Source: a virus (lineage: Duplodnaviria > Caudoviricetes). Taken from it: 64,000 bases of DNA. The notes beneath the pieces were generated by a model, which worked only from the letters and a program-made list of their open reading frames with translations, made no database searches and was not told where the DNA came from. The stretch covers positions 1-64,000 of IMG/VR virus record IMGVR_UViG_2627853700_000003; one strand, written 5' to 3'. Shown here piece by piece: positions 5,430 through 62,102 of this stretch; the first letter of the stretch is position 1; the number at the start of each line of letters is the position of its first letter. The translations under genes were made by a program, and so were the position numbers.

Positions 5430-5547
5430 CTTTTTCCTCCTTATTGTTTAGATAAAAGTCTTCTTTTATAGAGATGTTCGTTCAATCGACACCCTTTGGT
5501 ATCCCTAAGTTCTTTATAAACTTCAGGCATCACAATTTCGCTTTTTT

Positions 5548-5712
5548 CTAAATTTTAAACTTGTACATGTTCCCTTTTCTGTCTACATGATAGCGTCCTT
5601 TTGGATAATATACATATCCATCTGCATTTACCTTATCAATTACATTAAACATGAATTCGCCATGTTTTGTATTCCCTGACATCCACGCCTTTTTACGTAA
5701 TCTTTTTTTCAT
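5548..5712 (-). CDS. Small basic hypothetical protein (MKKRLRKKAW...)
   Basis: SD AAGGAG precedes ATG at 5712, inside ORF 5548..5799. Confidence 0.5.
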   Translation of the reverse strand: MKKRLRKKAWMSGNTKHGEFMFNVIDKVNADGYVYYPKGRYHVDRKGNMYKFKI

Positions 5713-5833
5713 CCAGCATCTCCTTTGTAGGTATAATTGTTGAATTTTTTTGAGTATTTTAAGTTGTAACCTGACTGCGACCCTCCACTGGATAGACATA
5801 CATCATTAGACCTCAGTCAGGACTTGACTTGTA

Positions 5834-6262
5834 TTACTTAGTTCCAGTCGATCCGTGCCCACCGCGATCATCGTTACCTAGATGATCTACCTCTATCAAT
5901 TCAACTTCAGGCATCTTCTTCATAATTCTGAACTGACAGATACGATCCCCTTTTTTAATTTCTGTATCCCGTAATGCATAAGCCGGAAAGAACCAGAAAT
6001 CATTGTCTCCCTTGTAGGACTCATCAATAATACCCATTGAGTTTGTTTCAATGATGCCAAAGTTTTTAAATGTACTTGAACGAGGAACGACATGAGCTTC
6101 ATATCCTTCTGGCAGCTCCATTGCCACTCCTAACGGGATAAGTTTGAATTCATTCTTTTTGATTGCAACATCTTCAGATGCTCGAAGATCAATCCAATCC
6201 CCCTGCTCAATTTTGTTAATTCTTGTTTGTGATTCATCTAGGTATTTGATTTTAATTTGCAT
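5834..6262 (-). CDS. yosS: dUTPase (trimeric)
   Basis: [35 protein letters not shown]. Confidence 0.95.
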
Positions 6263-6310
6263 TATGTATTAACTCCTTTTGTTTTTTAATTTATTTTGTC
6301 TAACAATATT

Positions 6311-6679
6311 TTAATTGTAGAGTTTAAGATTTCTCACCCATTCAGGAAGCTGTTCAGGTGTCTTAATGCCGTAGTTAATACAAGTCAGAGTATTAGGCTC
6401 AAGTTGTGTATAACCTTTATCTCTAATAACAGTATATCCTCCTGCATGTTCTAACTCTTCAAGTTTGTATTGGGGGCATTTTAAGATGATTTTCTTTTGT
6501 TCTTTCATATATTCATCTAGGCTTTTAATTTCTCTTCCTTCACTTAATGGCTTGACTGCTTTGTGATATACATAGCTCATTACTGCATGCCCAACCTGCC
6601 CAGCTAACTTCCCTTTGCTGATTTTGATATCCTCGTTAACTAAAATATACATTCTATAATCTCTCATATTTAACCTCAT
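6311..6679 (-). CDS. Peptidyl-tRNA hydrolase, Pth2 family
   Basis: KGKLAGQVGHA, QKKIILK, IRDKGYTQLEPNTLTC are Pth2 signatures. Confidence 0.85.
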   Translation of the reverse strand: MRLNMRDYRMYILVNEDIKISKGKLAGQVGHAVMSYVYHKAVKPLSEGREIKSLDEYMKEQKKIILKCPQYKLEELEHAGGYTVIRDKGYTQLEPNTLTCINYGIKTPEQLPEWVRNLKLYN

Positions 6680-6902
6680 TTATTGATCCTTTCTGAACGA
6701 TTTCCCACTGTTCCAAATTCAAACTCTTTACTGTATGAGGAGATATTTCATCACACCATATAACTGGCGTACCAGTATTGTCTGGACTATCTCCATAAAC
6801 TGTGTAAATGCAATTAGTTTCAAAATGCCAATCCCCTCTTAGGCATTTAAGTTTGTCTCCAATCTTTATTAACGATTTTTGTTCTTCTGAAATTTTAAAC
6901 AA
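6654..6902 (-). CDS. Hypothetical phage protein
   Basis: ORF track, SD GGAGG. Confidence 0.55.
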   Translation of the reverse strand: MFKISEEQKSLIKIGDKLKCLRGDWHFETNCIYTVYGDSPDNTGTPVIWCDEISPHTVKSLNLEQWEIVQKGSINEVKYERL

Positions 6903-7137
6903 CCTCCCTTGCTAACTTATCAAGCTCATCGGGATTAAAGCCAATGCTTCGTTTTACTTCCTCTCCTTGATCACTCAGCAGAATGGTTACCGATACTCCC
7001 ATTACCCCATATTATGCTGCCGCTTCTGGCTTCTGTATTACATCAACTGTCTCATATTTGACTCCTGCATCATTTAAGTAATTGGACACCATTTTGCAGG
7101 GATTGCAATTCGGTTGTTCTAATTTAATCAGTCTCAT
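6895..7137 (-). pseudogene. yosR: NrdH-like thioredoxin with internal stop codon
   Basis: MRLIKLEQPNCNPCKMV...PEAAA*YGVMGVSVTILL...; in-frame TAA at 7012-7014. Confidence 0.85.
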
Positions 7138-7857
7138 TTAAATCGCCTCTCTTTTATATTTGAATTTCCATCCTTTATGTGTTTTAGCCCTTCCAGATAA
7201 ACACCGCATAATACCTTGTTTAATTAATCCATGGTCTCTTGCAAACTCCCTAATTCCTTTAGCTTCAATCAAAACTCCTTCAGGAGATAATGCGAATATT
7301 TCTTTTTTAATATTTTCTAAGTCTCTATAATTGTTGTTTTCTTTCTTAGTTAAGAAGCAACATGTTACAAGTGAATATTTCCTTTTATTTATTGGCACAT
7401 TTATTTGAATTTTATCTTTATCCAAATGAATCTTTCCTTGAGAAAACAGGATCTCATCATACCCTTTGATTAAAGGGAGATCCTCTAAAAAATTCTCGAA
7501 GCAATGCCACCTTCTTTCCACAGTCACTCCTTTGGCACCGTATCTTTCATAACCACTTCCCCTTGGATGATAGCAACGCTCAAGCATTCCGCTCCAAACA
7601 CTGTACTCCTTTTTATGATCAGTCATTTTCACATTGCCCATGTACCCTACTCCGAATACAGACTTCTCAAACTTATCTTTTATCTTCCCGCGTTTCATTT
7701 CAACTTTTTCAACAACTCTTCCATACCCAGTTTTAAGAAAACGAATTCTATATTTATATCTGTTCATTTCTCTAAAAACTTGAACCACTTTGTACTTTTG
7801 GTTTGCGTTATTCACATAAACTTTACCGACAAGACTGTCTTTTTTAAGTTTAACCAA
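7138..7857 (-). CDS. Free-standing homing endonuclease-like protein (HNH-like core, NUMOD1-like C-terminus)
   Basis: WSGMLERCY...YG.KGVTV..RW..FENF..D...LDKD...YSLVTCCF...NN; C-terminal REFARDHGL...[14 protein letters not shown]. Confidence 0.75.
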
Positions 7858-13203: not shown

Positions 13204-13254
13204 TTTACATCTCCTTATTTTTTAATTTCATTTTGAATAAAGCTGTGATTTTAT

Positions 13255-14197: not shown

Positions 14198-14230
14198 TTG
14201 CTTCCTCCTTATCCCTTTAAAATCATCCTT

Positions 14231-14524
14231 TTAATTAAAATTTATAACTCCATCCCAGCTTTCCAATTCTTTAATATCGTTATTAATTTCTTTGCTTCTT
14301 AATAAACGTTTTCTTGCAGCTCTTGCAGACTCTTCAAACGCACCTTTAAGTGTCTGGGCACTTCCGAAGAATGGATTGCCTCGGTATACAACTTTGTTTT
14401 TTTCATTGTCCTTAACCACAACTTCGTCTATTAACCACTGTCCGAGGCGACTGGTTTCTTTGGCAAAGAATGTGATTCTAAATTGATATCCATCAATTAC
14501 AACAAGTTTTTCAAAACTTTTCAT
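14231..14524 (-). CDS. Hypothetical phage protein
   Basis: ORF track, SD. Confidence 0.6.
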   Translation of the reverse strand: MKSFEKLVVIDGYQFRITFFAKETSRLGQWLIDEVVVKDNEKNKVVYRGNPFFGSAQTLKGAFEESARAARKRLLRSKEINNDIKELESWDGVINFN

Positions 14525-14565
14525 TATTCGCCCCTCGTTTTCAATGAAATAAAACTTTTAATCGG

Positions 14566-16017: not shown

Positions 16018-16170
16018 TTTTCTCCCTCATTGATGATTTTCTTTACGGCTTTTAAAAGCATGTTTAGTGATTTCTTGTCACCCATTTCATCCCGATTGAC
16101 CTCAATAAAGTGAACTGCTGACATTAATTTATCCTGCATTTCAGTTGCTCCTCTCGATAAAAATTGAATT

Positions 16171-16644
16171 TTAACCTAATTTCTCCAAGATAATTTTAAG
16201 ATAATCTTTGAAGTCAATAGCTACAGCTTCTTCACCTTCTACACGTTTCTCATCTCTTACGCCAAAAAACCATCTATCACCTACCCACTGGCTTGCAGTT
16301 ATATTATTTCTCCCGAACACATCATGGCCTTTGAAAGGATTTGCCTCTTCTATTTTCTCTAGCATAGACCTTATGTCTGTGAAATACTTAGAACGTTTTT
16401 TAAATGCATAGAAGCCAGCTTTTGTGGGGTTTTTCACCACTTCATCTTTAAAGAAGTCATATGCTTCTGTTCCTGCGCGTACTCCGAAATACTCGGAATG
16501 ATAGAACGAAAAACCATTCTTAATTCCGTATGTTGCTTCGAATTCATCAAAGAATTTGTTAATATCTTCTCTTCGTTTCTTCTCAGTTTTATACCAATCG
16601 CTTTCTTGCTTAATCTCATAAATTGGTGCATCTAATGTTTCCAT
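16171..16644 (-). CDS. Hypothetical phage protein
   Basis: ORF track, SD. Confidence 0.65.
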   Translation of the reverse strand: METLDAPIYEIKQESDWYKTEKKRREDINKFFDEFEATYGIKNGFSFYHSEYFGVRAGTEAYDFFKDEVVKNPTKAGFYAFKKRSKYFTDIRSMLEKIEEANPFKGHDVFGRNNITASQWVGDRWFFGVRDEKRVEGEEAVAIDFKDYLKIILEKLG

Positions 16645-17195: not shown

Positions 17196-17237
17196 TTAGC
17201 ATCTCTCCATTCTCGATAAAAGGAATATTTTATACTC

Positions 17238-18192: not shown

Positions 18193-18229
18193 CTCTTATA
18201 TTTTATTTTCACTCTTTAAAAGACAAATT

Positions 18230-19741
18230 TTATTCAGATTCTTTATTATCGTATGTATGTATTAATTCCTTGAATATTGACTCAAGTACAGTTACAGTAA
18301 TTGAATTGCCGGCTTGCTTGTACAACTGCGAATTACTAATTCCCACTGATAAGGCTTTCTCAAAATCTTCTTCATCAAATGCTTGCAGTCTCCAACATTC
18401 TAATGGAGTGAGCTTTCTAATTCTGTATTTTGGGTATTCGCCAATTGCTACACCATGACGATCAATTGTATTAACAGTGAAGGCCGGTTCATCGTCTTCT
18501 TTAAAGCGTCTGCCATTTTGTCTTTTTTCTTCCCTTTCTGGAGTTAAGACGGGTCTTATTTCAGGGTTTGGCACAGAAATTTTCACCCCTTCACCCTTAT
18601 TTGTTGTTAAAGTTGAACTTAGCCCATTTGAATTGTAAACCTGACCATTCATTCCTTCTCCTGAAGGATTAATATTACCAACATACTCAACAGCAATTTT
18701 AGGTTCTCTATGACCTCCTCCCATAGTTGTTAATGTTGGTGACACCCCATCAGGCGAGTACACTCTTTTAATTGCATCATGTCCTTTTAGATCAATGTGA
18801 CCAATCATGATCGGGTCTTCCACTTTGTATAGCGAAGTCTGCCCTCCGAGACCACCTACCGATTGGGATGTCAAAGTTGTTGCAATGCCATTTGAATCAT
18901 AGACTCTATTGCCTTGTTTAAAGTTTCTGGAATATGTTTTTCCGTTATTCAGCCACCTCTTTCCTACGTTAATGCCACCAACAAACACCACATCTTTTTC
19001 TTTTGGTTTTTCAATTTGTTCAATCAGTTTAGATGTTTTTTCTTCGCTTAAGTAATACTTCTCATCTACATATTCCTCAAGAATTTCTCGCAATCTCTTT
19101 CCAACAATATCTTGTGCAGACCATTTAAAATTGAAACTTTTTATATTTAATTCTTTTAATCTCTTTTTTCCCTTACTTAAAACATCGTTCCTTCCCTTTT
19201 CGACAATCCATTCGTCATTTTCAATTAAATCCTCACGAACTCCAATTATGTATATACGCTCACGATTCTGAGGAACATTGAAAAATTTTGAATTAAGTAG
19301 CTCTAAGTCAATTCTGTACCCAACTTCACTAAAAGATTCAGCCATAATATTTAATGTATTTCCTTTATCATGATTGATCAACCCTTTAACATTTTCAAAA
19401 ACAAAATACCGCGGCTTCTTCTCTTTTAAGGTATCTATATATTGAAAAAACAATGTCCCTCTAGTATCTTCGAACCCTTTCCGATAACCGGCTACGCTAA
19501 AGCTTTGACAAGGAGATCCTCCAACTAAAAGATCAAATTCAGGCAGTTTTTTCTTATCAATCTTGCTTACATCACCAAAATTTGATTGCTCATCAACGTT
19601 GTGAATCGCACAATATGACTTAATAGCATATTTATCAATTTCACTAAAGCCAACCAGTTCATATTCAACCCCAATGTTTCTTAGTGCAGCTTCAAACGCA
19701 CCGATTCCACTAAAAAGACTCATTACTCGTAGTTTATTCAA
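18230..19741 (-). CDS. mtbP: Multispecific DNA cytosine-C5 methyltransferase (SPR/phi3T/rho11/H2 family)
   Basis: FSGIGA, GSPCQSFS, ENV, QNRER, QAGNS; several TRD-like repeats in the variable region. Confidence 0.93.
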   Translation of the reverse strand: MNKLRVMSLFSGIGAFEAALRNIGVEYELVGFSEIDKYAIKSYCAIHNVDEQSNFGDVSKIDKKKLPEFDLLVGGSPCQSFSVAGYRKGFEDTRGTLFFQYIDTLKEKKPRYFVFENVKGLINHDKGNTLNIMAESFSEVGYRIDLELLNSKFFNVPQNRERIYIIGVREDLIENDEWIVEKGRNDVLSKGKKRLKELNIKSFNFKWSAQDIVGKRLREILEEYVDEKYYLSEEKTSKLIEQIEKPKEKDVVFVGGINVGKRWLNNGKTYSRNFKQGNRVYDSNGIATTLTSQSVGGLGGQTSLYKVEDPIMIGHIDLKGHDAIKRVYSPDGVSPTLTTMGGGHREPKIAVEYVGNINPSGEGMNGQVYNSNGLSSTLTTNKGEGVKISVPNPEIRPVLTPEREEKRQNGRRFKEDDEPAFTVNTIDRHGVAIGEYPKYRIRKLTPLECWRLQAFDEEDFEKALSVGISNSQLYKQAGNSITVTVLESIFKELIHTYDNKESE

Positions 19742-19808
19742 TAAACAACCTCCATATATTTTATTTTTACTCTAAATAAAATTGATCTTTTAAATGGAAT
19801 CATTCAAA

Positions 19809-20051: not shown

Positions 20052-20071
20052 CTCTCTTCAAAAGAGATATT

Positions 20072-20590
20072 TTATAGTAATTTTCGTTCAATCTCTCCCC
20101 AGTTCATAACACGAATAAATCTGTTATCATCCCTGTTATGCGGTGCATCAAAAAGTATCTTCATTCCATCAAATGTTTCTAAGTTATGTACTCCGTCATC
20201 AATCATGATATCTGCTTTAATTATGTTTTTATTGCCACAAAGCACAACATTGCTATGTGGAATAAATGGGAAATGCTCTGTGAGCCATTCTAACTTAGCT
20301 TTAAGGGATTCTGGATGGTTTGTTGCTGTAGTAACAATATATACTTCATATTTTTTCGTCAGCTCCTCAACTGCCCTCTGACTCCCTTCAATAACATCCA
20401 GATGTCTGAACAATTCATAATCCAAATGTCTATAAACATTGTTTTGGGTATTTGAATATTTGCTAATATCCCAGCACAGTATATCTTCCTCTTTTAGAAA
20501 AGGATCATCGTGGGCATTAATGTAGGCTACCCAATCACTTAATAAATCAGCTAAAACTTGATCCATATCAATTGCAATTACTTTCTTCAT
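20072..20590 (-). CDS. yorS: 5'(3')-deoxyribonucleotidase (HAD)
   Basis: IDMDQVLAD, MIDD, APHN. Confidence 0.9.
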   Translation of the reverse strand: MKKVIAIDMDQVLADLLSDWVAYINAHDDPFLKEEDILCWDISKYSNTQNNVYRHLDYELFRHLDVIEGSQRAVEELTKKYEVYIVTTATNHPESLKAKLEWLTEHFPFIPHSNVVLCGNKNIIKADIMIDDGVHNLETFDGMKILFDAPHNRDDNRFIRVMNWGEIERKLL

Positions 20591-34221: not shown

Positions 34222-34259
34222 TAAACCATCTCCTAATCTTGTTAAAACTACAGTTTTAT

Positions 34260-36820: not shown

Positions 36821-36930
36821 TTAAATAAACACTCCTTTTATTTTTATTCTTATAAACTTCAGATAGCTGAAATAAATTACATCTCAATCACCTCCTTTTA
36901 AGTTAAAAATCACTTTTAACGCACGCTATC

Positions 36931-37167: not shown

Positions 37168-37223
37168 AGTACGATTTGTTCTATCTATATTGCTTCACTC
37201 CATTCCTCTATAAAATATCGTTT

Positions 37224-38376: not shown

Positions 38377-38421
38377 ATTTCCCCTTTTTAATTTTATTTT
38401 TATCCTTATAAAATCTCTGTT

Positions 38422-38910
38422 TTATTTAGATTCGAAAAGCTCAGTATCTTCGTAAATATTACCGATTACTTCATAACTGATGACAGTCGGGTCTGATTCG
38501 CTTTTTAACCAACTCAAAGCATTCATCTCACAATCAATCCAAGGCCTTAAATCAAATGCTGGATAGTTTTCGCTATCCAAGAATTTAACTTCTCCAACGT
38601 AATAAGGTTCTTCAGCCCATGTGGTGTCGAAAGTAATCCGAATTATATCCCCTTCATAAATCTCCTTGCCGTTATTGTCCTTCAATCCGGTGTATTGTCG
38701 AACCGCTTTCAAACTTTTATCAGCAAACGAATATTCATCACCGTCTTTATCTGTAACGTAATCTATTTTTCCGTTATCAAAAGAAATGTCATGAACATCA
38801 ATAATTTCTTCGTAACTGTCTATACCTGCCCAATGCATATTAGAACCCAAATTGCTTAATGCATGTTTAACTACCAACGCCTGAAATTTAATATCTCTCA
38901 TTCTCTCCAC
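38422..38910 (-). CDS. YopX family protein
   Basis: QYTGLKDNNGKEIYEGDI...EVIGNIYE. Confidence 0.9.
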   Translation of the reverse strand: MERMRDIKFQALVVKHALSNLGSNMHWAGIDSYEEIIDVHDISFDNGKIDYVTDKDGDEYSFADKSLKAVRQYTGLKDNNGKEIYEGDIIRITFDTTWAEEPYYVGEVKFLDSENYPAFDLRPWIDCEMNALSWLKSESDPTVISYEVIGNIYEDTELFESK

Positions 38911-41481: not shown

Positions 41482-41576
41482 AAATAAATCACATCCTTTA
41501 AAATAACTATTTTATTTTGATTCCTTAATAATCACCAAATATCATAGCCCACAAAATCATTTAGAATATTCGTCAT

Positions 41577-42694: not shown

Positions 42695-42733
42695 TGTTAC
42701 TCCCCCATTTTCACTTTAAAAACTATCTTTTAT

Positions 42734-42985: not shown

Positions 42986-43307
42986 TTCCCACCTCTTCCT
43001 TTAAAATCACGATTTTATGTAGACTAAACCTTTTTCTTGCTGTCATGCGTTCACACTTTTGGGTAAGATACTAATCTGTTAACATTAATAACTCATCAAC
43101 TTTATAATTGTATTCACCGTATTCACCCGAGCTCCATTTAACACCTACAGAGCCTTGATTTGTCACCCACAATATAATTCCCATTTCCCCATTTTCATGC
43201 CATCTTACTTGCTGCCCTTTCTGATAACCAAGCATGTTTCCACCCCTTTCTTAAAAAGCATTTTAATTTAACTTTAATGTGTATTGCCTTGAGAAAATCC
43301 CCTTTAA

Positions 43308-44921: not shown

Positions 44922-44959
44922 TAAATACCCTCCTTTAGTTTTCAGATGAAATAATCCTT

Positions 44960-45352
44960 TTACACAAATATTAATGTAGGCTCCTTGTCCTCTTCATATC
45001 GTTCGTATCCAATAAAATAATGATCGTAGTCCTTTTGAATATATGATGAAATCCAGTCGATGAATTTTTCAATCTCATCATCGTAGTTTTTTAAATTACA
45101 TCTAATACTTACATAACAACCACCAACAACAGCGTCATTTTCAATTTTGCTATGGGTTTTCCCATCGAAATAATAACTATCTGATTGAAGCATCCATTTC
45201 CATCTAGTATCTTCAGAAAACAGATTATGTTCTGGCAACTCACTTGGATGTTCATCTCTTTGACCAGTCATAAACTCTAAAATTTCAATTATTGATCTTG
45301 GTGTTTCCTCAATAAGCTTAAAAGCACAAACCAATTCAGTATACATTCCCAT
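44960..45352 (-). CDS. Hypothetical phage protein
   Basis: ORF track, SD. Confidence 0.65.
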   Translation of the reverse strand: MGMYTELVCAFKLIEETPRSIIEILEFMTGQRDEHPSELPEHNLFSEDTRWKWMLQSDSYYFDGKTHSKIENDAVVGGCYVSIRCNLKNYDDEIEKFIDWISSYIQKDYDHYFIGYERYEEDKEPTLIFV

Positions 45353-45384
45353 TAATATATCTCCCTCTCTTTAAAACAGTCTTT

Positions 45385-45579
45385 TTATTGAAAATATTTA
45401 TCTGATGTGCGGGCCATGTCTTCCCCGCCTAAATAGTTTTTTATTTCATTTAAGCTATAAATGACCTTATCGAATTTATCCCTAATGTGCGGTGCATATT
45501 CAACTGATGAATCAGACATCCCTAATTCCTTTAGATTTGTGTCTAATTCTTTAAAGTAACCTTGTAACTTTACGTTCAC
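45385..45579 (-). CDS. Hypothetical phage protein
   Basis: ORF track, SD. Confidence 0.55.
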   Translation of the reverse strand: MNVKLQGYFKELDTNLKELGMSDSSVEYAPHIRDKFDKVIYSLNEIKNYLGGEDMARTSDKYFQ

Positions 45580-46045: not shown

Positions 46046-46078
46046 TTCTCCTCTTCCTCTCTCTTTAAAATTTTACTT

Positions 46079-46876
46079 TTATTGAAACTTGTGCTTATTT
46101 TTCAATAGCTCATCTTTGATTTCCGCGTAGTCTTTCCCCAATTTCACCAAAACTGAGATAGTTTTTTCAGCTTGAACCACTTTTTTAAGATCCTCAGTTG
46201 TCATTGCGTCCCTAAGTGAATCTTTATCATCTAAATCATATACATTCATTAGTTCCTTTTTGTTTTTATCAAAACAAACTTTATAAACAAGTTGAGTGAA
46301 GTTTGTATACGCATGAACATCCTTCATGTTTCCTTCATAAAACTCCTTAATTGCATCGGTAAGCTGTTTTCGTTCTGTCCTCGCAATTTCTCTTTTTGCT
46401 GCCCAAATAGCAATTTGCTTTGGAGTGGCCTCCTCTACATTTAACAAATAGTGTCTAACTGATTTTCCAACTTTGGATTCAGTAAGTAACATTCCTAATC
46501 TAAGCAATCCTCTTCGATTAACAATTTGCAAACTTCTGACTTTCGAGCTTATAATTTTGCGAGGTTCATCATGAACCTGACAAAATTCTTTTAAACTCTT
46601 ACCTTTTAAAACTCTAATTTCAGCATAATCGTTAAATTCATCTCTATTTCTTTTAATGACGGTCTTGATCGTATCAACAGGAACCATATAATACTCCGCG
46701 GCCATCTCAACTGTAATCTCTGTAGAGTTCCCAAGTAGAGGTACTACTTTTATTCGATCCAAAATCTCGTCCCGGTACATGTGCTCCTCTCGGATAGTTC
46801 TGTGCTCGAATACGCCCATTTCGTTATTTTCGTTAATAGTTGCTTCAATTTGCTCATTTTTGTTTTCTTTTTTCAT
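46079..46876 (-). CDS. Antirepressor-like DNA-binding protein
   Basis: AAEYY.V..DTIKTVIKRN.DEF...LLRLGMLL.ES.V...RKQLTDAIK...YTNFT. Confidence 0.6.
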   Translation of the reverse strand: MKKENKNEQIEATINENNEMGVFEHRTIREEHMYRDEILDRIKVVPLLGNSTEITVEMAAEYYMVPVDTIKTVIKRNRDEFNDYAEIRVLKGKSLKEFCQVHDEPRKIISSKVRSLQIVNRRGLLRLGMLLTESKVGKSVRHYLLNVEEATPKQIAIWAAKREIARTERKQLTDAIKEFYEGNMKDVHAYTNFTQLVYKVCFDKNKKELMNVYDLDDKDSLRDAMTTEDLKKVVQAEKTISVLVKLGKDYAEIKDELLKNKHKFQ

Positions 46877-48141: not shown

Positions 48142-48188
48142 GTTATTCCCCCTTATCTCAATCTCTATAAAACTTACATTTTAAATGC

Positions 48189-49844: not shown

Positions 49845-50834
49845 TTAAATCAATTCTTCTTTTAAATCCAATTCTTCTGCATAAAGCTTCTTTACCACTT
49901 CTTCATTAACGTAATCTTTCATACTGTAAACAGCCCTAGACCTATTACTAACAACTAAATTAAAATCATCAATGATCTGGTATCTAACGGCATTATCTAT
50001 AACGCCTCTTTCCTTATAAAGCTGATATGCGCGATACAGATGTCCTGACCTTACAATTGTATTAGGCGTAAGAAAGTTTATTTTAAAGAACTCTGAGATA
50101 TCTGTAATTAAATTCGTAATTATATGTCTACCGGCTTGCCCTTCATTTTTTCCCCGGGTTATTTTGGTTTTGATTACATAATCATTGTCCACCAGTGACA
50201 CTGCTTTTGCCCAACCTTCACCTCTACCATTTTTCAATTGATACATGGTTTCCTTTGAAGCGTTTAATGCAATTATGAGACAATCACTACTAACTTTTAA
50301 TTTGCGATCTCCATTCTTTATGTCATGCAATGTTAGAACATTATCGTTTAGCATTGCTTCTTCAATTTGTTGCCGTGAAAGACTAAGAAGTTCGGAGTGC
50401 GCCATGCCTGAGATGCCTTCAAACAAACATCTTAGAACTGCTTTCGATTGATAATTGAGTAGTTTTTCTTGCATCTCTTCCAGTTCACTATAGGAGATGT
50501 ATAACTTTTTACCACCTAAGCACCCATATAGCTCTTCATTCGATATAGTTCTCGCTAAATTTACAGTACCCTTGCTCAAATTATAAGATGCTGCCCAATC
50601 GATATACATTGACAATAATGATAATGTTCTTTTTACACTCCCAATTGTTGTTTGATCGAATGATCGTATTAGCTCTAAAATCTGTACTGAAGTGAAATCA
50701 TAAATATCTTTTTTATAAAGATTTTCCGTTATTTCTGATTTTGAGAACAGGGGTCTCAACTGATGAGCTACTGCCTCTGTAACAGAATCTAAATACTTTT
50801 CCTTAATATCACTATTGAACATTGCATCAAACAT
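49845..50834 (-). CDS. yopR: Master repressor YopR (MrpR/SroF), integrase-fold
   Basis: Degenerate tyrosine-recombinase fold (LTPNTIVRSG); last gene of the operon downstream of aimP. Confidence 0.85.
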   Translation of the reverse strand: MFDAMFNSDIKEKYLDSVTEAVAHQLRPLFSKSEITENLYKKDIYDFTSVQILELIRSFDQTTIGSVKRTLSLLSMYIDWAASYNLSKGTVNLARTISNEELYGCLGGKKLYISYSELEEMQEKLLNYQSKAVLRCLFEGISGMAHSELLSLSRQQIEEAMLNDNVLTLHDIKNGDRKLKVSSDCLIIALNASKETMYQLKNGRGEGWAKAVSLVDNDYVIKTKITRGKNEGQAGRHIITNLITDISEFFKINFLTPNTIVRSGHLYRAYQLYKERGVIDNAVRYQIIDDFNLVVSNRSRAVYSMKDYVNEEVVKKLYAEELDLKEELI

Positions 50835-50842
50835 CTCCTAAG

Positions 50843-52234
50843 CTAATTAAATTGCTGCTCTATCTCTATTTCTCTGAAGAAGTCACAAATTTTTTGAGGA
50901 GCTCTCGGATTACCGTTACTATCAATGACCCCAAGCTCCTTCCAAAGAGGATTGTCTTTTCTGAAATCAATTGGTTTTAGTATCTCTTCAACCTTATTTT
51001 CTACATCATCAATCGATACATCTGATTCCTGTAATCGTTTCGCTAATTGAACATAGCCGTTAAAAAACAAATTGGCGTTAACAAGAGATCGCTTCCGTTC
51101 GTCTGCAATACTGCCTAAAAATTCATCAATATAAATATTGGCCATAGCATCAAAAAAGGCACTTAAGTATCTCCCGGTTTTCAAGATGTCTGCTTGATTG
51201 CTAAAATCCTTTTTAGAATAGTTGCGTTCAACAGCTTTCTTGAAATCCGAAAAAGTAATTAACAGGTTTTGCCCGCGGTTGATCCAATCACTGTTGGTCT
51301 TAATGTAATCGCCAATGAGACTGTTATCTTGAATAAACTTAACGATCTTATTCGAGAAATAATGCTGACTCATCTCAGCAACCTTAGATTTTTTCACTGG
51401 GTTTATAGTGTTCTGTTGTCCAAAATGCTCTCTAGCCTGTTTTTGAGTGTAATTGTATATGTCTACTTTGAACACACGCTTTAGCAAATGCTTTAATTCA
51501 GGATGTTGTCTAATAGCAGTGGTTATCCCGATAAGTCTATGATACCCGTCCAGCACGTCCAAAATTGTACCTTCAGTTACTGTTAAAGACATATTTTCTT
51601 CGTCATATATTAACTCAATTCCTTCATCCGCGCTGCCTACACGTGCATTAAAAGTGAACATTGAGCTTATTAATTTTCCCTCTTTAAACAACTCTTTAAT
51701 TTCATCTACTGATTTTTTATTTAATTCAGGAACAGGTATTTCAATATCAGTTCCTTCAAGTTTTTTGGTTTTATTTGTTCTTTGAGCATTCGGATTATAA
51801 TGAAGTAGCTTATTTTCAAATAGACGATAAAGCTCTTCAGCAGTAATCTGGAATGTTAAATTGCTATCTGAGTATTTAACAGCGTTTTTAAAGGTGTAAG
51901 GAAGTTTAATTTCGTCTTCCACTTCGCCTTCCCAAAGCGTTTCAATATCCTGCATATCGGCTTCAGTAAAATAATTGGCAGGGTTAAACCTTTCTGATTC
52001 AAGAATCTTGAATAGGCATTTAGCTAAAAAATACATGTATTCTTTAGAAAGGTCTAACTCTGGATTTTCTAATTCGTTAATTATTTTTTGTGTTGTACCA
52101 GGAGGTATTTTGAACTCCGCCATACCTATTTGGACATCATTTATAAAAGAGCGTATATGTTTTTTTTCAGAAAACACGTCTCTCATTTCGGTGAGCAATT
52201 TCTCATTTGCAGATTGGTCAAATATCACCGTCAT
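50843..52234 (-). CDS. yopQ: YopQ (SroE), DndB/ParB-like domain
   Basis: YNPNAQR, LDGYHR; synteny. Confidence 0.85.
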   Translation of the reverse strand: MTVIFDQSANEKLLTEMRDVFSEKKHIRSFINDVQIGMAEFKIPPGTTQKIINELENPELDLSKEYMYFLAKCLFKILESERFNPANYFTEADMQDIETLWEGEVEDEIKLPYTFKNAVKYSDSNLTFQITAEELYRLFENKLLHYNPNAQRTNKTKKLEGTDIEIPVPELNKKSVDEIKELFKEGKLISSMFTFNARVGSADEGIELIYDEENMSLTVTEGTILDVLDGYHRLIGITTAIRQHPELKHLLKRVFKVDIYNYTQKQAREHFGQQNTINPVKKSKVAEMSQHYFSNKIVKFIQDNSLIGDYIKTNSDWINRGQNLLITFSDFKKAVERNYSKKDFSNQADILKTGRYLSAFFDAMANIYIDEFLGSIADERKRSLVNANLFFNGYVQLAKRLQESDVSIDDVENKVEEILKPIDFRKDNPLWKELGVIDSNGNPRAPQKICDFFREIEIEQQFN

Positions 52235-52320: not shown

Positions 52321-53409
52321 TCATTTCTCTTTTGATTCCGATTGGAATTTAATGAATTTATTCAGTATTGACGGCTCCACTGTTTCAAAAAAAGAAATAA
52401 AATCTTCTTTTTTAGCTTCATAAAGAATGTCAATTTCAATGTCCTCATCCATAATAACGCCTGCAGCCTTGGATATATCTTTTCTTTTACTCATATAACG
52501 TTCAGTGGTTGCTACACTGCTATGATTACCTTGTTCCCTTGCAGCTAATATGTCGTGACCAGTGTGTTCGTAAACATAGTCAATACCCACGCCCTTAAAA
52601 GAGTGAAATTTCAAGTCCCTCTCAGGCGGAATTCCCAGCCTTTCTTTAGACCGTTTTAGAGAATGTCTTAGAGATTGCTCAGATAGACCTTTAAAAACAT
52701 AATCCGTGTCGACTGCGTTTTCATCTCTTAGTTCTAAAAGCTCTTCATAAAAAGATTTATTGATCCCAGTAGACACCACTTTAGAGCCCTTGTCTAAAAC
52801 TGAAACCACATAATGACCGGTCGTCGGATCAAGTTCAAAATCAATCCATCTTAATACTAATAATGCACTAAGACGAAAAGAAGTTCTTGCTGCTGCCTTC
52901 ACACACAGTTTTTTGTGTAATGGTTTTTGACGTTCGTTAATATACATATCTTCTGCTATAAGATCAGCTTCTTCTTTGTTTGTTCTTCCCCAATTCTTCT
53001 CAACTGTTTTCAACTTTCCAACAGAGTCAAATACACTTAAATCAATAAATTCTTTGTAATCGTGGCTAAGGTATTTATATAGCATTCTTAAGGATGCTAA
53101 TTTTCTTTTAATACTCTTATTTACAAGTCCTTTACTTTGAAGATGTTTTATATACCCAGCAAGATCACTTTTAGTGATTACTAAATCATTTTCAGACAAA
53201 TATTCGATTTCTTTTTCTTTTAGGATTCTGAAAAATTGCTTTATATCACATGCGTAATTTTTTCGAGTATTAGAAACAGCAGTTAAATCCTGAGTTTGGT
53301 ACTTTGAGTTACCTGAGCTACTGGCTATGTCCTTGGTGTAGAGAAAGCTCATAATATCCTCAAACACCTTGTATTCCTTAATAGGTTTAATTTCTGCACT
53401 CATCGTCAT
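52321..53409 (-). CDS. yopP: YopP (SroD), tyrosine recombinase family
   Basis: SFRLSAL, DKGSK, FHSFK, GNHSS, TTERY; SD GGAGG before ATG at 53409. Confidence 0.85.
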   Translation of the reverse strand: MTMSAEIKPIKEYKVFEDIMSFLYTKDIASSSGNSKYQTQDLTAVSNTRKNYACDIKQFFRILKEKEIEYLSENDLVITKSDLAGYIKHLQSKGLVNKSIKRKLASLRMLYKYLSHDYKEFIDLSVFDSVGKLKTVEKNWGRTNKEEADLIAEDMYINERQKPLHKKLCVKAAARTSFRLSALLVLRWIDFELDPTTGHYVVSVLDKGSKVVSTGINKSFYEELLELRDENAVDTDYVFKGLSEQSLRHSLKRSKERLGIPPERDLKFHSFKGVGIDYVYEHTGHDILAAREQGNHSSVATTERYMSKRKDISKAAGVIMDEDIEIDILYEAKKEDFISFFETVEPSILNKFIKFQSESKEK

Positions 53410-53620
53410 GTTCCTCCCTCCGTTTAAATTCGCTATCATAAATTAGATCATCAATGGAAACATCCAGTACCAAAGCGATCAGCTTAACGGAAGTTACATC
53501 TCCCTCATGCGGTTCATTAATGATTTTCTTGAGTTTATCAATATTAATCATTGTTTCTTTTGCAATCTGTTCCATTGTGATGTTGCGTTCTTCCATCAGC
53601 TTTTTAATTCGCTTTGACAT
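53387..53620 (-). CDS. yopO: YopO (SroC) Xre-HTH regulator
   Basis: HTH pattern; synteny. Confidence 0.8.
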   Translation of the reverse strand: MSKRIKKLMEERNITMEQIAKETMINIDKLKKIINEPHEGDVTSVKLIALVLDVSIDDLIYDSEFKRREEHDDECRN

Positions 53621-55946: not shown

Positions 55947-56277
55947 ATATGTTTAAAATTCGTATTTTATATAAACACAATGAGGGTTAATCCTCATCGT
56001 GCATAACTGGCCAAAAATATTTCTCTATCTTCTTTTTTATTTCCTTTTGTGCATCTTCATCAAGTTTATTGAATAAAGATTTCATAAGCGAACGTTGCTC
56101 AAATATAATAAAGTTTCCATATTTTTATTTCTTCGTCTTATATGTTCAGCACGCTTCACTCCTTCTTTGTATCCTCTTTTAAAAGCATCGGATTCCAACT
56201 TATTGAATTCATATTGTTTCTGAATCTCTTCATAGCCCATGTTTTATTCCGCCTTTTGTAAATCTCAATTTAAATAC

Positions 56278-60187: not shown

Positions 60188-60230
60188 AATGGTACCTCCG
60201 CTATTCTTCCGTTTCTATTAAAGAATTGCT

Positions 60231-60683
60231 TTATGTTGAAGGATCAATTACTTCTGGTTTATTAACGTTAATTCTATAGTCTACTTCTTCCGTTCCATCA
60301 AGTTCAATTGTAAGAAGAAGGTCATAACCATCTTTAATATGTACAACTGAGTGTGAAAAGTCATCTGGAAACCCGACATGATATAAAAAATTCGCAAACT
60401 CAGTTGATCTCATTTTAGAAGGGCCAAATGTAAAGTAGTTTTCAATTAAAACAGTGTCCCCATTTAGAAAATCAACATAAGTTAAATCATCTCCAGAGTT
60501 TTCCCCATAATGAAAGTGAGTAATTTTTGTTACTTTTTTAAATCGCTTAGTTTCAGCCATCATTTTAATATCATTTATTACAACTGATGGATCATCCCTT
60601 CCCCTTACCGGTCGAAAAATAATTCTTGGCTCTTTGTTATACTTATATTCCTTAGTGAGTTTTTGCAAACTATAAATATTCAT
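60231..60683 (-). CDS. Hypothetical protein
   Basis: ORF track, SD. Confidence 0.6.
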   Translation of the reverse strand: MNIYSLQKLTKEYKYNKEPRIIFRPVRGRDDPSVVINDIKMMAETKRFKKVTKITHFHYGENSGDDLTYVDFLNGDTVLIENYFTFGPSKMRSTEFANFLYHVGFPDDFSHSVVHIKDGYDLLLTIELDGTEEVDYRINVNKPEVIDPST

Positions 60684-60714
60684 TATATTCTCCCTTATCT
60701 CTTTAAAATCGTAG

Positions 60715-61362
60715 TTATATTGTCTGTTTGTCTGTTTTAATCACAATTTGACACTCAATTTTATAATCTGTTTCACCGGTCTCAATCTTTGTATCATCAC
60801 GGTTAACTTTATATTTTCCTCCATACAAACTTGCTGAGATTGGGTGCCTTATGTCACTCTTTAACTGATCGTAAATGTATTTCTTGCCTTCTTGAAAATC
60901 CTTTCGAGGAACATGTCCTACTTTGCAATCATTTACATAGACAGCTATAGCTTCCGGATCGTGCTTGTTGTTCTCTTCTAACCGCAATTCACAATTTGAG
61001 AAAAGGGCATTATGATAAATAAATATCGGCTCATCAAAAGTTGATTCTAGAATCTCTTTATTTGTCATACCATCATATTTTTCATCGAAGAAAAAACTAT
61101 CTTCATCCTCATTCTTGATAGCTTTCTTAATATCTTTTTGATAGTGTGATGTTCCTGCAACCTTAAAGTCTATATACTCGAAAAATGCAGACTTTTCTTC
61201 ATACTTCCTTGAGAAGGCTGTTTCTTGAATCAAGATTGGGAAATTTTCTTTTTTTGATTCCACCCCTGTTTCGTTATTAACCTCAACAGTGTTAATACTA
61301 TTATTTCTATTCTCATGCTGTTCATTTTTATCTTTGTTCTTGAAAAAGTTGAGTATGCCCAA
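60715..61362 (-). CDS. HIRAN-domain protein
   Basis: FKVAGTSHY...LEENNKHDPEAIAVY...VGHVPR. Confidence 0.8.
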   Translation of the reverse strand: MGILNFFKNKDKNEQHENRNNSINTVEVNNETGVESKKENFPILIQETAFSRKYEEKSAFFEYIDFKVAGTSHYQKDIKKAIKNEDEDSFFFDEKYDGMTNKEILESTFDEPIFIYHNALFSNCELRLEENNKHDPEAIAVYVNDCKVGHVPRKDFQEGKKYIYDQLKSDIRHPISASLYGGKYKVNRDDTKIETGETDYKIECQIVIKTDKQTI

Positions 61363-61395
61363 ATGTACCCCTCCAATTAAAATAAAAGAATGATT

Positions 61396-61818
61396 TTATT
61401 CAGTAACACCATTTTCATATTCAAGGTTGTATGTTGATATTTCGTGTACTCCTATATCCCCTGCAAAGTTTCCATCCTCATGTTCCTGTTGTAAATAAAC
61501 CTCTTTATCTTTTTCGAAGATTTCTCTTGCTTCATCTAATTCAGTTACAGCTTGCGATCCCATTCGATCTGTTACAGTAAAAACTAAGCACCGTTTTAAC
61601 TCGGTACCATCTTTAAGGACTACGTCTGCCATGACGTACCCATTTGGCTTTAGTTCGCCAATTTCATTACGTCTTTTATCGATTGCCTCTTGAAGAACCA
61701 CAGAAACAGTATTGTTATCAGACTCACTTAAAGCCATTTCTAATTCTTCAATTTCCTCAAGTAACACTTGAATTTCCTCTCTCATTTTCATCTCTCCCTT
61801 TGTTGTTAAATGAATCAT
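61396..61818 (-). CDS. Hypothetical acidic protein
   Basis: ORF track. Confidence 0.6.
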   Translation of the reverse strand: MIHLTTKGEMKMREEIQVLLEEIEELEMALSESDNNTVSVVLQEAIDKRRNEIGELKPNGYVMADVVLKDGTELKRCLVFTVTDRMGSQAVTELDEAREIFEKDKEVYLQQEHEDGNFAGDIGVHEISTYNLEYENGVTE

Positions 61819-61827
61819 TATCTCTAT

Positions 61828-62064
61828 TTAAGCACCCTGAGTATAGCCTGATTTGTCAATAGTTACGAGATGTTCAATGTCATCATAGTGCTCTGCGTTC
61901 ATGACCTCATATATATCAATCCCAAGATTCTTTTCCAAATTTCTTTTGGCATGTAAAACAATCATATTATCTGCATTAATACCATTAGGCATTTGTGGTA
62001 CACCCGCATCTGTTTTGATTTCTACACCGTTTACATTGAAAGTTACTTTTACTGTATTTTGCAT
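61828..62064 (-). CDS. Hypothetical protein
   Basis: ORF track, SD. Confidence 0.6.
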   Translation of the reverse strand: MQNTVKVTFNVNGVEIKTDAGVPQMPNGINADNMIVLHAKRNLEKNLGIDIYEVMNAEHYDDIEHLVTIDKSGYTQGA

Positions 62065-62102
62065 TGTAACCTCTCCTATTCCCTATGAAAGTACGATTTT
62101 AT

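Follow-up and report, generated by a model that had tools for sequence, protein, structure and literature searches.

An integron recombination site moves together with the gene that it serves. Heterospecific lox sites recombine only if their spacers are identical and thus allow ordered cassette exchange, but this is an engineering device, and we know of no natural multi-address system. Cluster A mycobacteriophages carry stoperators, short sites for a repressor that number in the dozens and are scattered over the prophage in small intergenic gaps; stoperators are asymmetric and orientation dependent and, to our knowledge, are not described as mosaic joints. The site of the tyrosine recombinase XerH, difH, is described as a 6-bp central region with arms of 11 and 10 bp, and in these accounts XerH reads the inner 5 bp (GAAAA) specifically and contacts the outer bases at the backbone (PMC5241119, PMC5357621).

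The window, i.e., the 64-kb stretch of DNA analyzed here, covers the early half of an SPbeta-like phage genome of 122.6 kb, and its genes run on the minus strand. A preliminary description had reported a palindrome, TAAAA-N6-TTTTA, at gene junctions, and all 19 exact copies were found again where it had placed them. In 100 dinucleotide-preserving shuffles of the window, a mean of 0.86 copies was obtained (maximum, 3), and none of the shuffles reached 19. The excess is confined to a spacing of 6, as had been anticipated; spacings of 0 to 5 and 7 to 15 gave only 0 to 3 copies each. The same holds for the whole genome (122,625 bp), with 26 copies at n = 6 and 0 to 3 at any other spacing, and n = 6 was the only enriched spacing in all phages examined: SPbeta (34 copies), four phi3Ts/hybrid records, 44 related IMG/VR loci (348 copies in total), and a distant prophage. 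A phage has 26 to 34 sites, each with a different central region. In an unbiased ranking of all 1,024 palindromic 5-mers at spacings of 3 to 10, TAAAA-N6 came first in four of the eight loci scanned (three of the seven distant ones) and tied for first in one more. The 4.8-Mb genome of a lysogen has no overall excess (55 sites, against 76 with the reversed motif as control); among 50 of these 55 sites, 23 fall inside ~137 kb of prophage, and the chromosome outside the prophage has no excess of the motif. Hence, the motif is specific to SPbeta-like phages and is absent from the host chromosome as an enriched element. The sites of the window are as follows, with the six-base middles given in gene direction.

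5453..5468, junction site, middle GAAGAC; identical 16-mer in 13 other sequence contexts
13238..13253, decayed site with one arm mismatch, middle TCACAG; perfect in 3 relatives
14218..14233, junction site, middle GGATGA; arm is the stop of ORF 14231-14524; 24 other contexts, 21 of them with neither flank resembling the window
14545..14560, decayed site, middle GTTTTA; perfect in 26 relatives
16158..16173, junction site, middle TTCAAT; ORF 16171-16644 takes its stop from this site
17217..17232, junction site, middle TATTCC
18217..18232, junction site, middle TTTGTC; bounds the C5-methyltransferase slot on the downstream side
19777..19792, junction site, middle GATCAA; bounds the C5-methyltransferase slot on the upstream side
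20059..20074, decayed site, middle TATCTC; stop of ORF 20072-20590; perfect in 11 relatives
34243..34258, junction site, middle CTGTAG; alone among the 19, it has no match elsewhere in the 97 sequences examined
36903..36918, possible decayed site, middle GTGATT; no perfect copy elsewhere; one base off GTAATT, which comes after ACGATA in relatives
37211..37226, junction site, middle ACGATA; shared with L004, a distant prophage
38409..38424, junction site, middle CAGAGA; borders a Gad1-containing block on the upstream side
41499..41514, junction site, middle TAGTTA
42717..42732, junction site, middle GATAGT
43002..43017, junction site, middle TCGTGA
44947..44962, decayed site, middle GGATTA; stop of ORF 44960-45352
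45372..45387, junction site, middle AGACTG
46066..46081, junction site, middle GTAAAA
46910..46925, junction site, middle GATGCA; 36 other contexts, 29 of them with neither flank window-like
48168..48183, junction site, middle TGTAAG
55954..55969, site upstream of aimR, middle TACGAA
59467..59482, site, middle GAAGTG; SPbeta homology begins exactly here
60704..60719, one-mismatch copy, middle CTACGA; no perfect copy in the first set of relatives, perfect in several further loci
61383..61398, junction site, middle TCATTC
62086..62101, decayed site, middle TCGTAC; perfect in phi3Ts and hybrids

All seven one-mismatch copies of the preliminary description exist as written. As a class, such copies are near chance in the window (25 found; 19.93 expected for at most one mismatch). 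Five of the seven (13238, 14545, 20059, 44947, and 62086) are nevertheless real decayed sites, since relatives hold a perfect site with the same middle at the matching position.

The placement also agrees with what had been described. All 19 exact copies lie between ORFs, single genes or short blocks are bracketed by sites, and the outer TTA of the site, TAA on the gene strand, terminates the upstream gene at eight of the 19 (14231, 16171, 18230, 37224, 38422, 45385, 46079, and 61396) and at two one-mismatch copies (20072 and 44960). No exact copy is found between 19777 and 34243, which leaves the replication module free, or between 5453 and 14218, which holds the nrd genes (~7.8 to 12.9 kb); the block at 49.8 to 55.9 kb is the yopMNOPQR/aimR lysogeny module, not nrd. 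In general, a site follows a stop codon and precedes the ribosome-binding site of the next gene, within long operons, although some SPbeta copies are in divergent or terminator regions. Among 327 unique sites, the arm TAA is the stop codon in 107, and a start preceded by a Shine-Dalgarno sequence follows 12 to 41 nt downstream in 217.

The 16-bp motif is the core of a larger site, a 28-bp imperfect palindrome of 11-6-11 geometry with the consensus T-Y-T-n-n-W-TAAAA-K-nnnn-M-TTTTA-W-n-n-A-R-A. Twofold symmetry is also seen at −6/+21, −5/+20, and −4/+19 and at both terminal bases of the middle (317 unique sites); with arms and flanks both symmetric, duplex DNA is the likely form of the element. 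An RNA hairpin was rejected as the identity of the element: the arm hairpin is unstable (ΔG of +0.7 to +1.8 kcal/mol), and 40-nt windows at the sites fold no better than shuffles (−2.25 versus −1.91 kcal/mol). A promoter or terminator was rejected as well, since no such signal is present at the sites, and so was SPBRE, the known MrpR operator, which differs in sequence and does not keep a constant register relative to the palindrome. Apart from the palindrome, there is a second junction repeat.

The main new result concerns the middle of the site: each junction has its own address-like 6-bp middle, often with unrelated genes on either side. Among 401 sites, 62 distinct middles occur, none is found twice within one locus, and their order is free of conflict (0 among 687 ordered pairs, 1,834 observations). 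The middle is thus a junction-specific address, nearly invariant across phages and constant in order, and it stays with the genomic slot while the upstream and downstream genes change. Presence or absence of one gene adds or removes exactly one site (L084 versus L087). Where genes have been inserted or deleted, sites with unlike middles are joined, and one deletion joint (L100) is located in an adjacent A-rich repeat, not in the palindrome.

Flank comparisons show how thoroughly the neighborhoods have been exchanged. Among 2,553 pairs of identical sites, both flanks are shared in 358 (14%) and neither in 1,406, whereas control 16-mers share both flanks in 82% (any) or 75% (intergenic) of pairs. 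The identity profile is a 16-bp island, with similarity falling exactly at the edges of the core. Up to 10 to 12 flank types are joined at a single site, four-gamete combinations are present at eight addresses, and slots carry up to eight unrelated contents across 21 loci. Eighteen of the 19 window sites recur in 5 to 36 other contexts with mostly unlike flanks. The sites are also where contigs of relatives, taken from two studies, break: site 14218 is a 39-nt island in an X15 contig, site 17217 is contained in a 29-nt island (17205-17233) with both sides replaced in an X15 contig, an X17 contig piece terminates at 16173, the edge of site 16158, and the X17 contig jumps from 18237 to 19750, skipping the C5-methyltransferase slot. 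SPbeta and phi3Ts share four blocks of at least 99.5% identity, and six of the eight block ends are 50 bp or less from a site. Breakpoints hit 224 of 229 junctions with a site, but also 728 of 1,078 junctions without one, and a further 1,657 breakpoint clusters are intragenic or other. The proposal that the sites delimit gene swaps among SPbeta-like phages is therefore borne out insofar as gene content changes at the sites and similarity ends at the core, but not as a privilege of the sites. With near-invariant, ordered addresses and exchanged flanking genes, the sites are crossover points of the gene-by-gene mosaic, hot spots but not exclusive ones, and the palindrome marks exact spots of gene swapping in SPbeta-like Bacillus phages.

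Four proteins encoded in the window, among them candidate enzymes of exchange, are as follows.

52321..53439, minus strand, YopP homologue, XerH-like tyrosine recombinase (Pfam Phage_int_SAM_1 and Phage_integrase), putative enzyme or binder of the sites
50843..52234, minus strand, YopQ homologue, DndB-like, neighbor of yopP
49845..50834, minus strand, MrpR (YopR) homologue, repressor binding SPBRE, a different motif
30023..31183, minus strand, AAA_24 protein, candidate enzyme for a rival short-homology route

YopP is a core gene product of SPbeta-like phages and is expressed in lysogens. A homologue is encoded in all 14 loci that cover the region, as well as in SPbeta, the window, and G001. 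Integration of SPbeta is attributed to SprA, an enzyme different from YopP (PMC8612738). YopP-type recombinases have 352 to 372 amino acids, and the best solved relative of the family profile is XerH (5jjv; E = 3e-9), to which the catalytic R, K, HxxR, H, and Y can be aligned. R, K, H, H, and Y are conserved; the second catalytic Arg is a Lys in the window and SPbeta and is retained in a 32%-identical clade and in the YopP of G001.

The preliminary description had recognized the geometry of a tyrosine recombinase core site, which fits, and the phage has a conserved Xer-like recombinase gene. Because the site resembles that of XerH/difH, whose arm-reading pattern agrees with the information profile of the phage sites, our best guess, held with somewhat less than even confidence, is that the sites are dif-like core sites for site-specific exchange by YopP; the link to YopP is drawn from family membership and site geometry. 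A pair of YopP monomers would recognize the arms by their inner 5 bp, and strand exchange would span the 6-bp middle and be completed only between identical middles. Two coresident collinear phages could then swap everything to one side of a common address, and two such events would replace the content of a slot, leaving gene order and reading frames undisturbed; the arm TAA could double as the stop codon for whichever gene is upstream. Several observations stand against YopP-driven exchange. The window and SPbeta enzymes have the Lys mentioned above, a strict same-middle rule does not predict insertions and deletions that join different middles, breakpoints are common away from sites, and the L100 joint is in the neighboring A-rich repeat. 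Furthermore, three of eight distant YopP-like loci lack the motif within 10 kb, the phage has an AAA_24 protein, a family that we take to be Sak4-like annealing proteins, and lab-evolved phi3Ts × SPbeta hybrids have their crossovers inside parent-identical blocks of 1.4 and 4.9 kb, so that ordinary homologous recombination suffices there.

In an alternative to which we give a serious but minor chance, the palindrome is primarily bound by a phage protein, a dimer that acts in regulation or DNA architecture, and is passive microhomology for relaxed homologous recombination by an annealing protein. The binder could be an Xre-type HTH protein or YopP as a noncatalytic roadblock; a precedent is MrpR, described as a tyrosine recombinase fold turned repressor and encoded in the same operon (PMC10516654). 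The site would serve as microhomology because it is the longest identical stretch kept at the junction, a logic also described for the PeSLs of T4-like phages (PMC2839356, PMC4122927). The putative annealing protein, the hybrids, the L100 joint, the second junction repeat, and the breakpoints at site-less junctions are all in line with this. However, two unrelated reasons are then required for invariant arms and near-invariant, position-specific middles, and a dimer that reads the arms leaves the conservation of the middle unexplained. Where flanks differ, just 16 bp of A/T-rich identity are available, yet 10 to 12 flank types have been joined; the sites have no promoter or terminator signal, and the ten MrpR ChAP-seq peaks reported are all at SPBRE. 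A protein-binding site, which the preliminary description had also offered as an alternative, is possible and belongs to both YopP-driven exchange and this reading.

An RNA-level signal in polycistronic early transcripts (processing, translational coupling or enhancement, or antitermination), which the preliminary description had listed as an alternative, is highly unlikely. The position between stop codon and Shine-Dalgarno sequence and the location inside long operons would suit it, but not the duplex symmetry, the poor folding, or the SPbeta copies in divergent or terminator regions, and it explains neither the position-specific middles nor the mosaic joints. Still less probable is the integron-like array first proposed, in which each promoterless gene brings its own site and moves as a circular cassette. 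Sites do follow stops directly, gene gain or loss does change the site count by exactly one, and the YopP profile matches the integron integrase IntI4 weakly (E = 7e-4), but the closest relatives of the enzyme are Xer proteins, not IntI, the 16/28-bp palindrome is of fixed length and lacks a stable hairpin, and no attI/Pc-type array head was seen. Above all, the analogy fails because the middle belongs to the slot and to neither the upstream nor the downstream gene. Chance or base composition, for which the A/T richness of intergenic DNA and the near-expected number of one-mismatch copies could be cited, is already refuted by the 19 copies, the restriction to n = 6 in every phage, and the unbiased ranking.

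In sum, the phage sites resemble those of the single-recombinase Xer systems XerH/difH and XerS/difSL, described as 28 to 31 bp long, with two ~11-bp arms that flank a central region in partial dyad symmetry; the arms have an A-rich inner 5 bp in both (GAAAA in difH, TAAAA in the phage), the outer bases are weakly specified, and the phage encodes a relative of XerH. Unlike Xer systems, which use one site per replicon for dimer resolution, the phages hold many sites with differing centers at gene junctions, no link to FtsK is evident for them, and the enzyme of the window deviates at the second catalytic Arg. The PeSLs (promoter-early stem-loops) are likewise described as short conserved intergenic elements that flank accessory ORFs of plastic regions and mark borders of insertion, deletion, and replacement in comparisons of related phages, but they consist of a sigma-70 promoter and a terminator hairpin, are alike everywhere, and recombine by homology at variable points, whereas the phage site is a strict 5-6-5 palindrome with a unique, ordered middle. 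SPBRE is also a repeated intergenic element of the same phages with a binder of tyrosine recombinase fold encoded beside yopP (PMC10516654), but it is a nonpalindromic AAAkAyAAAwAATATGTATA-like sequence at about ten promoters. With integron attC, the site shares the tyrosine recombinase-type architecture right after the stop of promoterless arrayed genes and a site count that shifts by one with gene gain or loss; attC is a long and variable element that folds as a single strand and is borne by the gene, and the phage site is fixed, duplex symmetric, and bound to its position. Finally, the phage sites are like stoperators in being many, short, and intergenic and, in the proposed model of exchange by YopP, would be like heterospecific lox sites in obeying an identical-spacer rule.

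Our data establish the palindrome TAAAA-N6-TTTTA as a real, strongly non-random and group-wide element of SPbeta-like phages, and they lend good support to its role as an addressed mosaic joint. All 19 exact copies located in the preliminary description were recovered at the same positions in the window, and the chance level of about one copy estimated there agrees with dinucleotide-preserving shuffles (mean 0.86, maximum 3, 0 of 100 reaching 19). The proposed fixed spacing is borne out by 19 copies at n = 6 compared to 0 to 3 at each of the spacings 0-5 and 7-15, a series that doubles as a control for A/T-rich intergenic composition. Furthermore, all 19 copies lie between ORFs, as had been claimed. 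Taken together, one-mismatch copies are close to the chance level (25 vs. 19.93 expected for at most one mismatch); of the seven named individually, five have middles (the 6 central bases) that are perfect sites at the matching place in relatives.

The complete phage genome, a single contig of 122,625 bp of which the window is the first 64 kb, contains 26 copies. The excess extends to other SPbeta-like genomes, with 34 copies in SPbeta (0-4 at other spacings) and 29-30 in phi3Ts as well as in each of three laboratory hybrids (reversed pattern, 2), and 348 copies were found in 44 IMG/VR loci of relatives (868 kb; 3-12 per locus), vs. 3-37 at other spacings. In a distant prophage of Bacillus sp. 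T33-2, there are 7 copies within 20 kb, with 0 at the other spacings tested. The 4.8-Mb genome of this strain holds 55 sites, 23 of the 50 listed falling in ~137 kb of prophage, and shows no excess as a whole (the reversed control gives 76). Since the lysogen chromosome outside the prophage has no excess, a site for a host factor was rejected; the palindrome is a property of the phage group and not of the host. A contig scan by nucleotidase anchor, which returned mostly Bacteroidota cellular genes, yielded the locus of the distant prophage as useful and 79 others as a negative control, and the n = 6 excess is absent from 1.17 Mb of unrelated Bacteroidota loci. An extended-pattern scan of IMG/VR gave mostly single matches among those listed and is uninformative on breadth. 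A 140-kb viral contig outside the other sets, IMGVR_UViG_2908369612_000002, has at least five extended-pattern matches within 6 kb (50.9-56.5 kb; L228-L231) and may be a further relative with dense sites.

The nearest annotated relatives of the phage are SPbeta, phi3T and SPR, and its C5-methyltransferase gene is 99% identical to an old phage H2 fragment. Base skew and ORFs place the window genes on the minus strand.

Gene modules and selected genes of the window (modules from Pfam and tblastn)
2.8-4.2 kb: thyA and DHFR
about 7.8-12.9 kb: nrd genes
7138-7857, minus strand: I-HmuI-like ORF, just downstream of the nrdF pieces
7850-8131 and 9042-9629, minus strand: pieces of the split nrdF frame
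8416-8943, minus strand: HNH endonuclease ORF, between the two nrdF pieces
9860-10792, 11094-11372 and 11770-12492, minus strand: pieces of the split nrdE frame
13-20 kb: small accessory genes and C5 methyltransferase
20-33 kb: replication module (PolA-type polymerase, DHH/RecJ-like protein, primase, DnaB-like helicase, AAA_24 protein)
34-49 kb: further accessory genes, including Gad1 and an N6/N4 methyltransferase
37486-38376, minus strand: full-length homologue of Gad1 (Gabija anti-defence 1; Pfam E = 8e-150), in a block bounded by palindromes at 38409 and 37211
44082-44921: N6/N4 DNA methyltransferase, directly after a decayed site at 44947
49845-55851, minus strand: arbitrium and lysogeny module yopR(mrpR)-yopQ-yopP-yopO-yopN-yopM-aimR

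The split nrd frames resemble the annotated intron-interrupted bnrd genes of SPbeta. The arbitrium and lysogeny block encodes MrpR, a DndB-like YopQ, a Xer-like YopP, an HTH protein, YopN, YopM and AimR, and its span, between the sites at 48168 and 55954, is devoid of exact palindrome copies.

An alignment of 317 unique sites gives an imperfect palindrome of 28 bp with the consensus T-Y-T-n-n-W-TAAAA-K-nnnn-M-TTTTA-W-n-n-A-R-A. The inner 5 bp of the arms are invariant around the 6-bp middle, and the symmetry includes the outer triplets (-6..-4 and +19..+21) and both end bases of the middle. This two-fold symmetry points to a site read by a two-fold symmetric protein on duplex DNA. With regard to the surrounding genes, the claim that one arm supplies the upstream TAA stop holds for part of the sites: for 8 of the 19 exact copies in the window and for 107 of 327 unique sites, 192 of which have the upstream stop within 12 nt. 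A start preceded by a Shine-Dalgarno sequence follows 12-41 nt downstream in 217 of the 327. In a late-region copy of SPbeta (50182-50197; L002 5182-5197), the middle contains the yonB Shine-Dalgarno GGAG and the start codon lies one base past the arm, so that this site overlaps, rather than precedes, the translation start region. Another copy, TAAAAGAAGGATTTTA, lies within the helicase gene yorI (SPbeta 103854; L003 13854-13869) and is also present in phi3Ts-type records (W01:97035) and twice in the Bacillus sp. genome with the distant prophage (G001:C12:142011 and C59:84576); it is a conserved intragenic copy that may or may not be a site.

The junctions carry a second repeat, RTAAAAATAAAAT, found as 13-mers on the minus strand at window positions 1252, 4612, 12651, 17240, 19758, 38391, 39234 and 43971. 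All 8 copies are on the gene strand and 0 on the other, compared to a mean of 0.24 over both strands in shuffles; this repeat is strand-specific, and the palindrome is not. It lies just upstream of a ribosome-binding site, sometimes 17-22 nt after a palindrome, and its 14-mers occur ~100 times in the 44 related loci, with many unrelated flanks.

The middles behave as addresses. Among 401 sites there are 62 different middles; each junction has its own, no middle is used twice in one locus, and the order of the series is the same in every phage. Around a yosD-like anchor gene the series reads GAATCA/GAGTCA, TATCTC, GATCAA, TTTGTC, GAAACT, TATTCC, TTCAAT, the anchor, GTTTTA, GGATGA and continues, and a second series surrounds a yoqB-like anchor. 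Indeed, 687 ordered pairs of middles were seen in 1,834 observations, and 0 of them occurred in both orders. Paralogous gene families adjoin different addresses, an identical upstream gene precedes different middles and an identical downstream gene follows different middles; therefore, the middle belongs to the slot (the DNA between two addresses) and not to the gene. Suggestive in the same context is a comparison of 94 non-independent pairs at 92-97% identity, in which the middle differed at 1.4% of positions, the core arms at 1.2% and the flanks at 4.7%, with an orthology assignment by flank alignment that reached closely related pairs only.

The contents of the slots differ widely. The slot from GATCAA to TTTGTC holds 8 unrelated contents of 227-1,611 bp in 21 loci, a methyltransferase among them, and that from GTTTTA to GGATGA holds 7 contents in 20 loci. 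One 16-mer joins 8-10 unrelated upstream sequences to several unrelated downstream ones in many combinations, four-gamete combinations occur at 8 addresses, and for 18 of the 19 window sites the identical 16-mer turns up in 5-36 further contexts (97 sequences), whose flanks mostly differ from those of the window. As descriptive percentages, since the flank tests use ungapped identity thresholds on phylogenetically non-independent pairs, both 40-nt flanks were alike in 358 (14%) and neither in 1,406 (55%) of 2,553 locus pairs with an identical site, vs. both alike in 82% of 23,789 pairs for control non-motif 16-mers and in 75% of 17,945 pairs for intergenic ones. Per position, the shared island coincides with the 16-bp core: in pairs alike on one side only, identity drops at the core edge to the level of the motif consensus and reaches background six bases further out.

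Individual joints give the same picture. Alignment pieces of relatives' contigs (from two public studies) end at sites when aligned to 13-22 kb; two pieces, 39 and 29 nt long, span just the sites at 14218 and 17217, both sides being replaced, and one contig jumps from 18237 to 19750, leaving out the methyltransferase slot. Contigs from RNA libraries cannot show transcription, and two raw RNA runs (X21, X24) had no read on the stretch and thus gave no information on it. In the comparison of SPbeta with phi3Ts, a site is found within 10 bp of 7 of the 74 HSP ends, vs. 0.67 expected at random positions. The four blocks with ≥99.5% identity (recent transfers) have 6 of their 8 ends within 50 bp of a site; the methyltransferase cassette and the block at 131.1-132.8 kb each have a site at both ends. 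Gene presence or absence adds or removes one site, and the joint was at the border of arm and middle in L084 vs. L087 and in L105 and L110, which are loci of relatives; in another, L100, it was in a neighboring A-rich repeat. In an all-against-all comparison, which is a rough measure since BLAST ends are noisy, 224 of 229 junctions with a site carried a breakpoint vs. 728 of 1,078 without, with 2.17 vs. 1.12 breakpoint clusters per junction, and a further 1,657 clusters were intragenic or other. The expectation that gene gain and loss fall at the motif holds in that the sites are hotspots; breakpoints are also common elsewhere, and the sites are not the sole joints. In any case, they are very probably crossover points, under either of two mechanisms.

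The first is site-specific recombination, with YopP (52321..53439, minus strand) as the candidate enzyme. Its gene is next to that of the repressor MrpR in 14 of 14 loci covering the region as well as in SPbeta, the window and the distant prophage. The protein combines the two domains of a tyrosine recombinase, SAM-like and catalytic, and R, K, H, H and Y are conserved throughout the YopP family (32-100% identity); at the second catalytic Arg, a distant clade has Arg and the clade of the window and SPbeta has Lys. A search of PDB sequences with the single YopP sequence (phmmer) gave no match. The best solved relative of the family profile is XerH (E = 3e-9; catalytic motifs aligned), and the next matches are XerA/XerC-like proteins, IntI4 (weak, E = 7e-4) and XerD. 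Distant contigs with a YopP-like protein (29-31% identity) have the motif in 4 of 8 cases, with entirely different middles; three distant YopP-like loci have no such motif. When all palindromic 5-mers at spacings 3-10 were compared, TAAAA-N6 was first in 4 of 8 loci (3 of 7 distant) and tied first in one more. Co-variation of arm sequence and YopP clade was not seen, both clades occurring in phages with the same TAAAA arms. According to passages of two studies, integration of SPbeta is catalyzed by the serine recombinase SprA (PMC8612738) and YopP is expressed in lysogens (PMC8612738; preprint 10.1101/2021.11.22.469490); the same passages give no function for YopP. A second tyrosine recombinase-like gene, the yomM homologue, lies outside the window in the late region (genome 101180-102181, plus strand), ~1 kb from the site at 100174; its product is 87% identical to that of SPbeta, also has Lys at the second catalytic Arg and is another candidate partner for the sites.

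Judged from the sequences of enzyme and sites, recombination of the sites by YopP is a plausible, if tentative, proposal. Exchange between two sites would require an identical overlap region, and this requirement would account at once for the conservation of the middles, their diversity within a genome and their constant order. In its full form, which we consider possible but less likely than not, the proposal is a natural multi-address system: each genome would have 25-35 dif-like sites with 6-bp overlaps of their own, and YopP would exchange DNA only between same-address sites of co-resident phages, resulting in an ordered, frame-safe replacement of accessory and anti-defence genes.

In the second mechanism, a protein-binding site would recombine through short homology, along the lines proposed for the PeSLs of T4 in two papers (PMC2839356, PMC4122927). 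We rate it only slightly below the first: possible, though less likely than not. The joint of L100 outside the palindrome and the abundance of non-site breakpoints fit it. Moreover, the phage encodes an AAA_24 protein, of a family that we take to be Sak4-like, and in laboratory phi3Ts x SPbeta hybrids the crossovers are within blocks of 1.4 and 4.9 kb in which the parents are identical. These blocks end within 8 bp of sites; since the crossovers lie inside long identical blocks, ordinary homologous recombination suffices, and the hybrids are neutral. However, short-homology recombination requires a separate function for the palindrome and, alone, leaves the conservation of a middle that a dimer would not contact unaccounted for.

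The integron-like cassette array put forward in the preliminary description had to be abandoned: the same middle is found between many unrelated gene pairs, the order is fixed and gene families stand beside different middles. The tyrosine recombinases found in the phage are Xer-like only. An identity with SPBRE, which passages of the MrpR paper describe as a 15-bp MrpR operator under ChAP-seq peaks reported at SPBRE only (PMC10516654), was rejected: the motif recovered from the ten promoters of that paper differs and is non-palindromic, and the palindrome is near 3 of the 10, at variable distance. A promoter/terminator composite was rejected as well, with 24 promoter-like (31.1 in shuffles) and 4 terminator-like signals (3.1) at 13-21 kb and no sigma-70-like promoter or intrinsic terminator at the sites of this region; -35/-10 signals hand-picked over and after the site at 19777 in the H2 and rho11s methyltransferase records are unsupported by the consensus scan. 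An RNA hairpin was dismissed on an arm-pairing ΔG of +0.7 to +1.8 kcal/mol, and 40-nt RNA windows at the sites fold no better than shuffles. The ComK box (A4-N5-T4) has a spacing unlike that of the palindrome; 434-type operators were also considered.

SPbeta is a model temperate phage of Bacillus subtilis whose early region stores accessory and counter-defence genes. The Gad1, C5-methyltransferase and N6/N4-methyltransferase genes of the window are in or beside site-bounded slots, and the sites provide a testable rule for the reshuffling of this store, fixed ordered addresses with interchangeable contents, and suggest a function for the core gene product YopP. If the exchange is site-specific and middle-dependent, it would amount to a novel way in which phage genomes evolve and offer a ready-made set of orthogonal recombination sites. 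If it proceeds by short homology, the PeSL principle would extend from lytic T4-like to temperate Bacillus phages, which would still leave unexplained a DNA-binding system with ~30 sites per genome. The element is apparently undescribed so far: a mention of the palindrome was not found by full-text literature searches or in passages of an SPbeta review, the MrpR paper (PMC10516654) and the preprint on SPbeta relatives (10.1101/2021.11.22.469490), the 1999 SPbeta genome paper being outside this scope, and the literal pattern string matched an unrelated archaeal regulator paper only. The SPbeta GenBank record has stem-loops and two other palindromes annotated but none of these sites as such, one of which lies inside an annotated terminator stem-loop.

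The sites were compared with several known systems. Stoperators are bound by the prophage repressor, asymmetric and in a single orientation relative to transcription; the SPbeta-like site is symmetric. Like the PeSLs of T4, the sites flank accessory ORFs and mark boundaries of insertion, deletion and replacement between related phages, but a PeSL consists of a sigma-70-type early promoter and a terminator stem-loop, neither of which was found at the sites of the 13-21 kb region, and the palindrome forms no stable hairpin. Integron attC sites are long, imperfect inverted repeats that vary in length, fold in single-stranded form and travel with their cassettes; here, the length is fixed (16/28 bp), the arm hairpin is unstable and, quite the opposite, the middle stays with the slot. 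The geometry is that of Xer/dif, with two ~11-bp arms, partial dyad symmetry and a 6-bp center. In passages on XerH/difH (PMC5241119, PMC5357621), the central region has 6 bp and the arms 11 and 10 bp, the left arm ending in GAAAA; base-specific contacts are made with the inner 5 bp, the outer bases are recognized mostly via the backbone, and the central region is hardly touched. The information profile of the SPbeta-like site matches this reading pattern. However, Xer/dif uses a single site per replicon for dimer resolution, whereas this phage has 26 (SPbeta 34), all with different middles. The multi-address system proposed here would be a natural counterpart of recombinase-mediated cassette exchange with heterospecific spacers.
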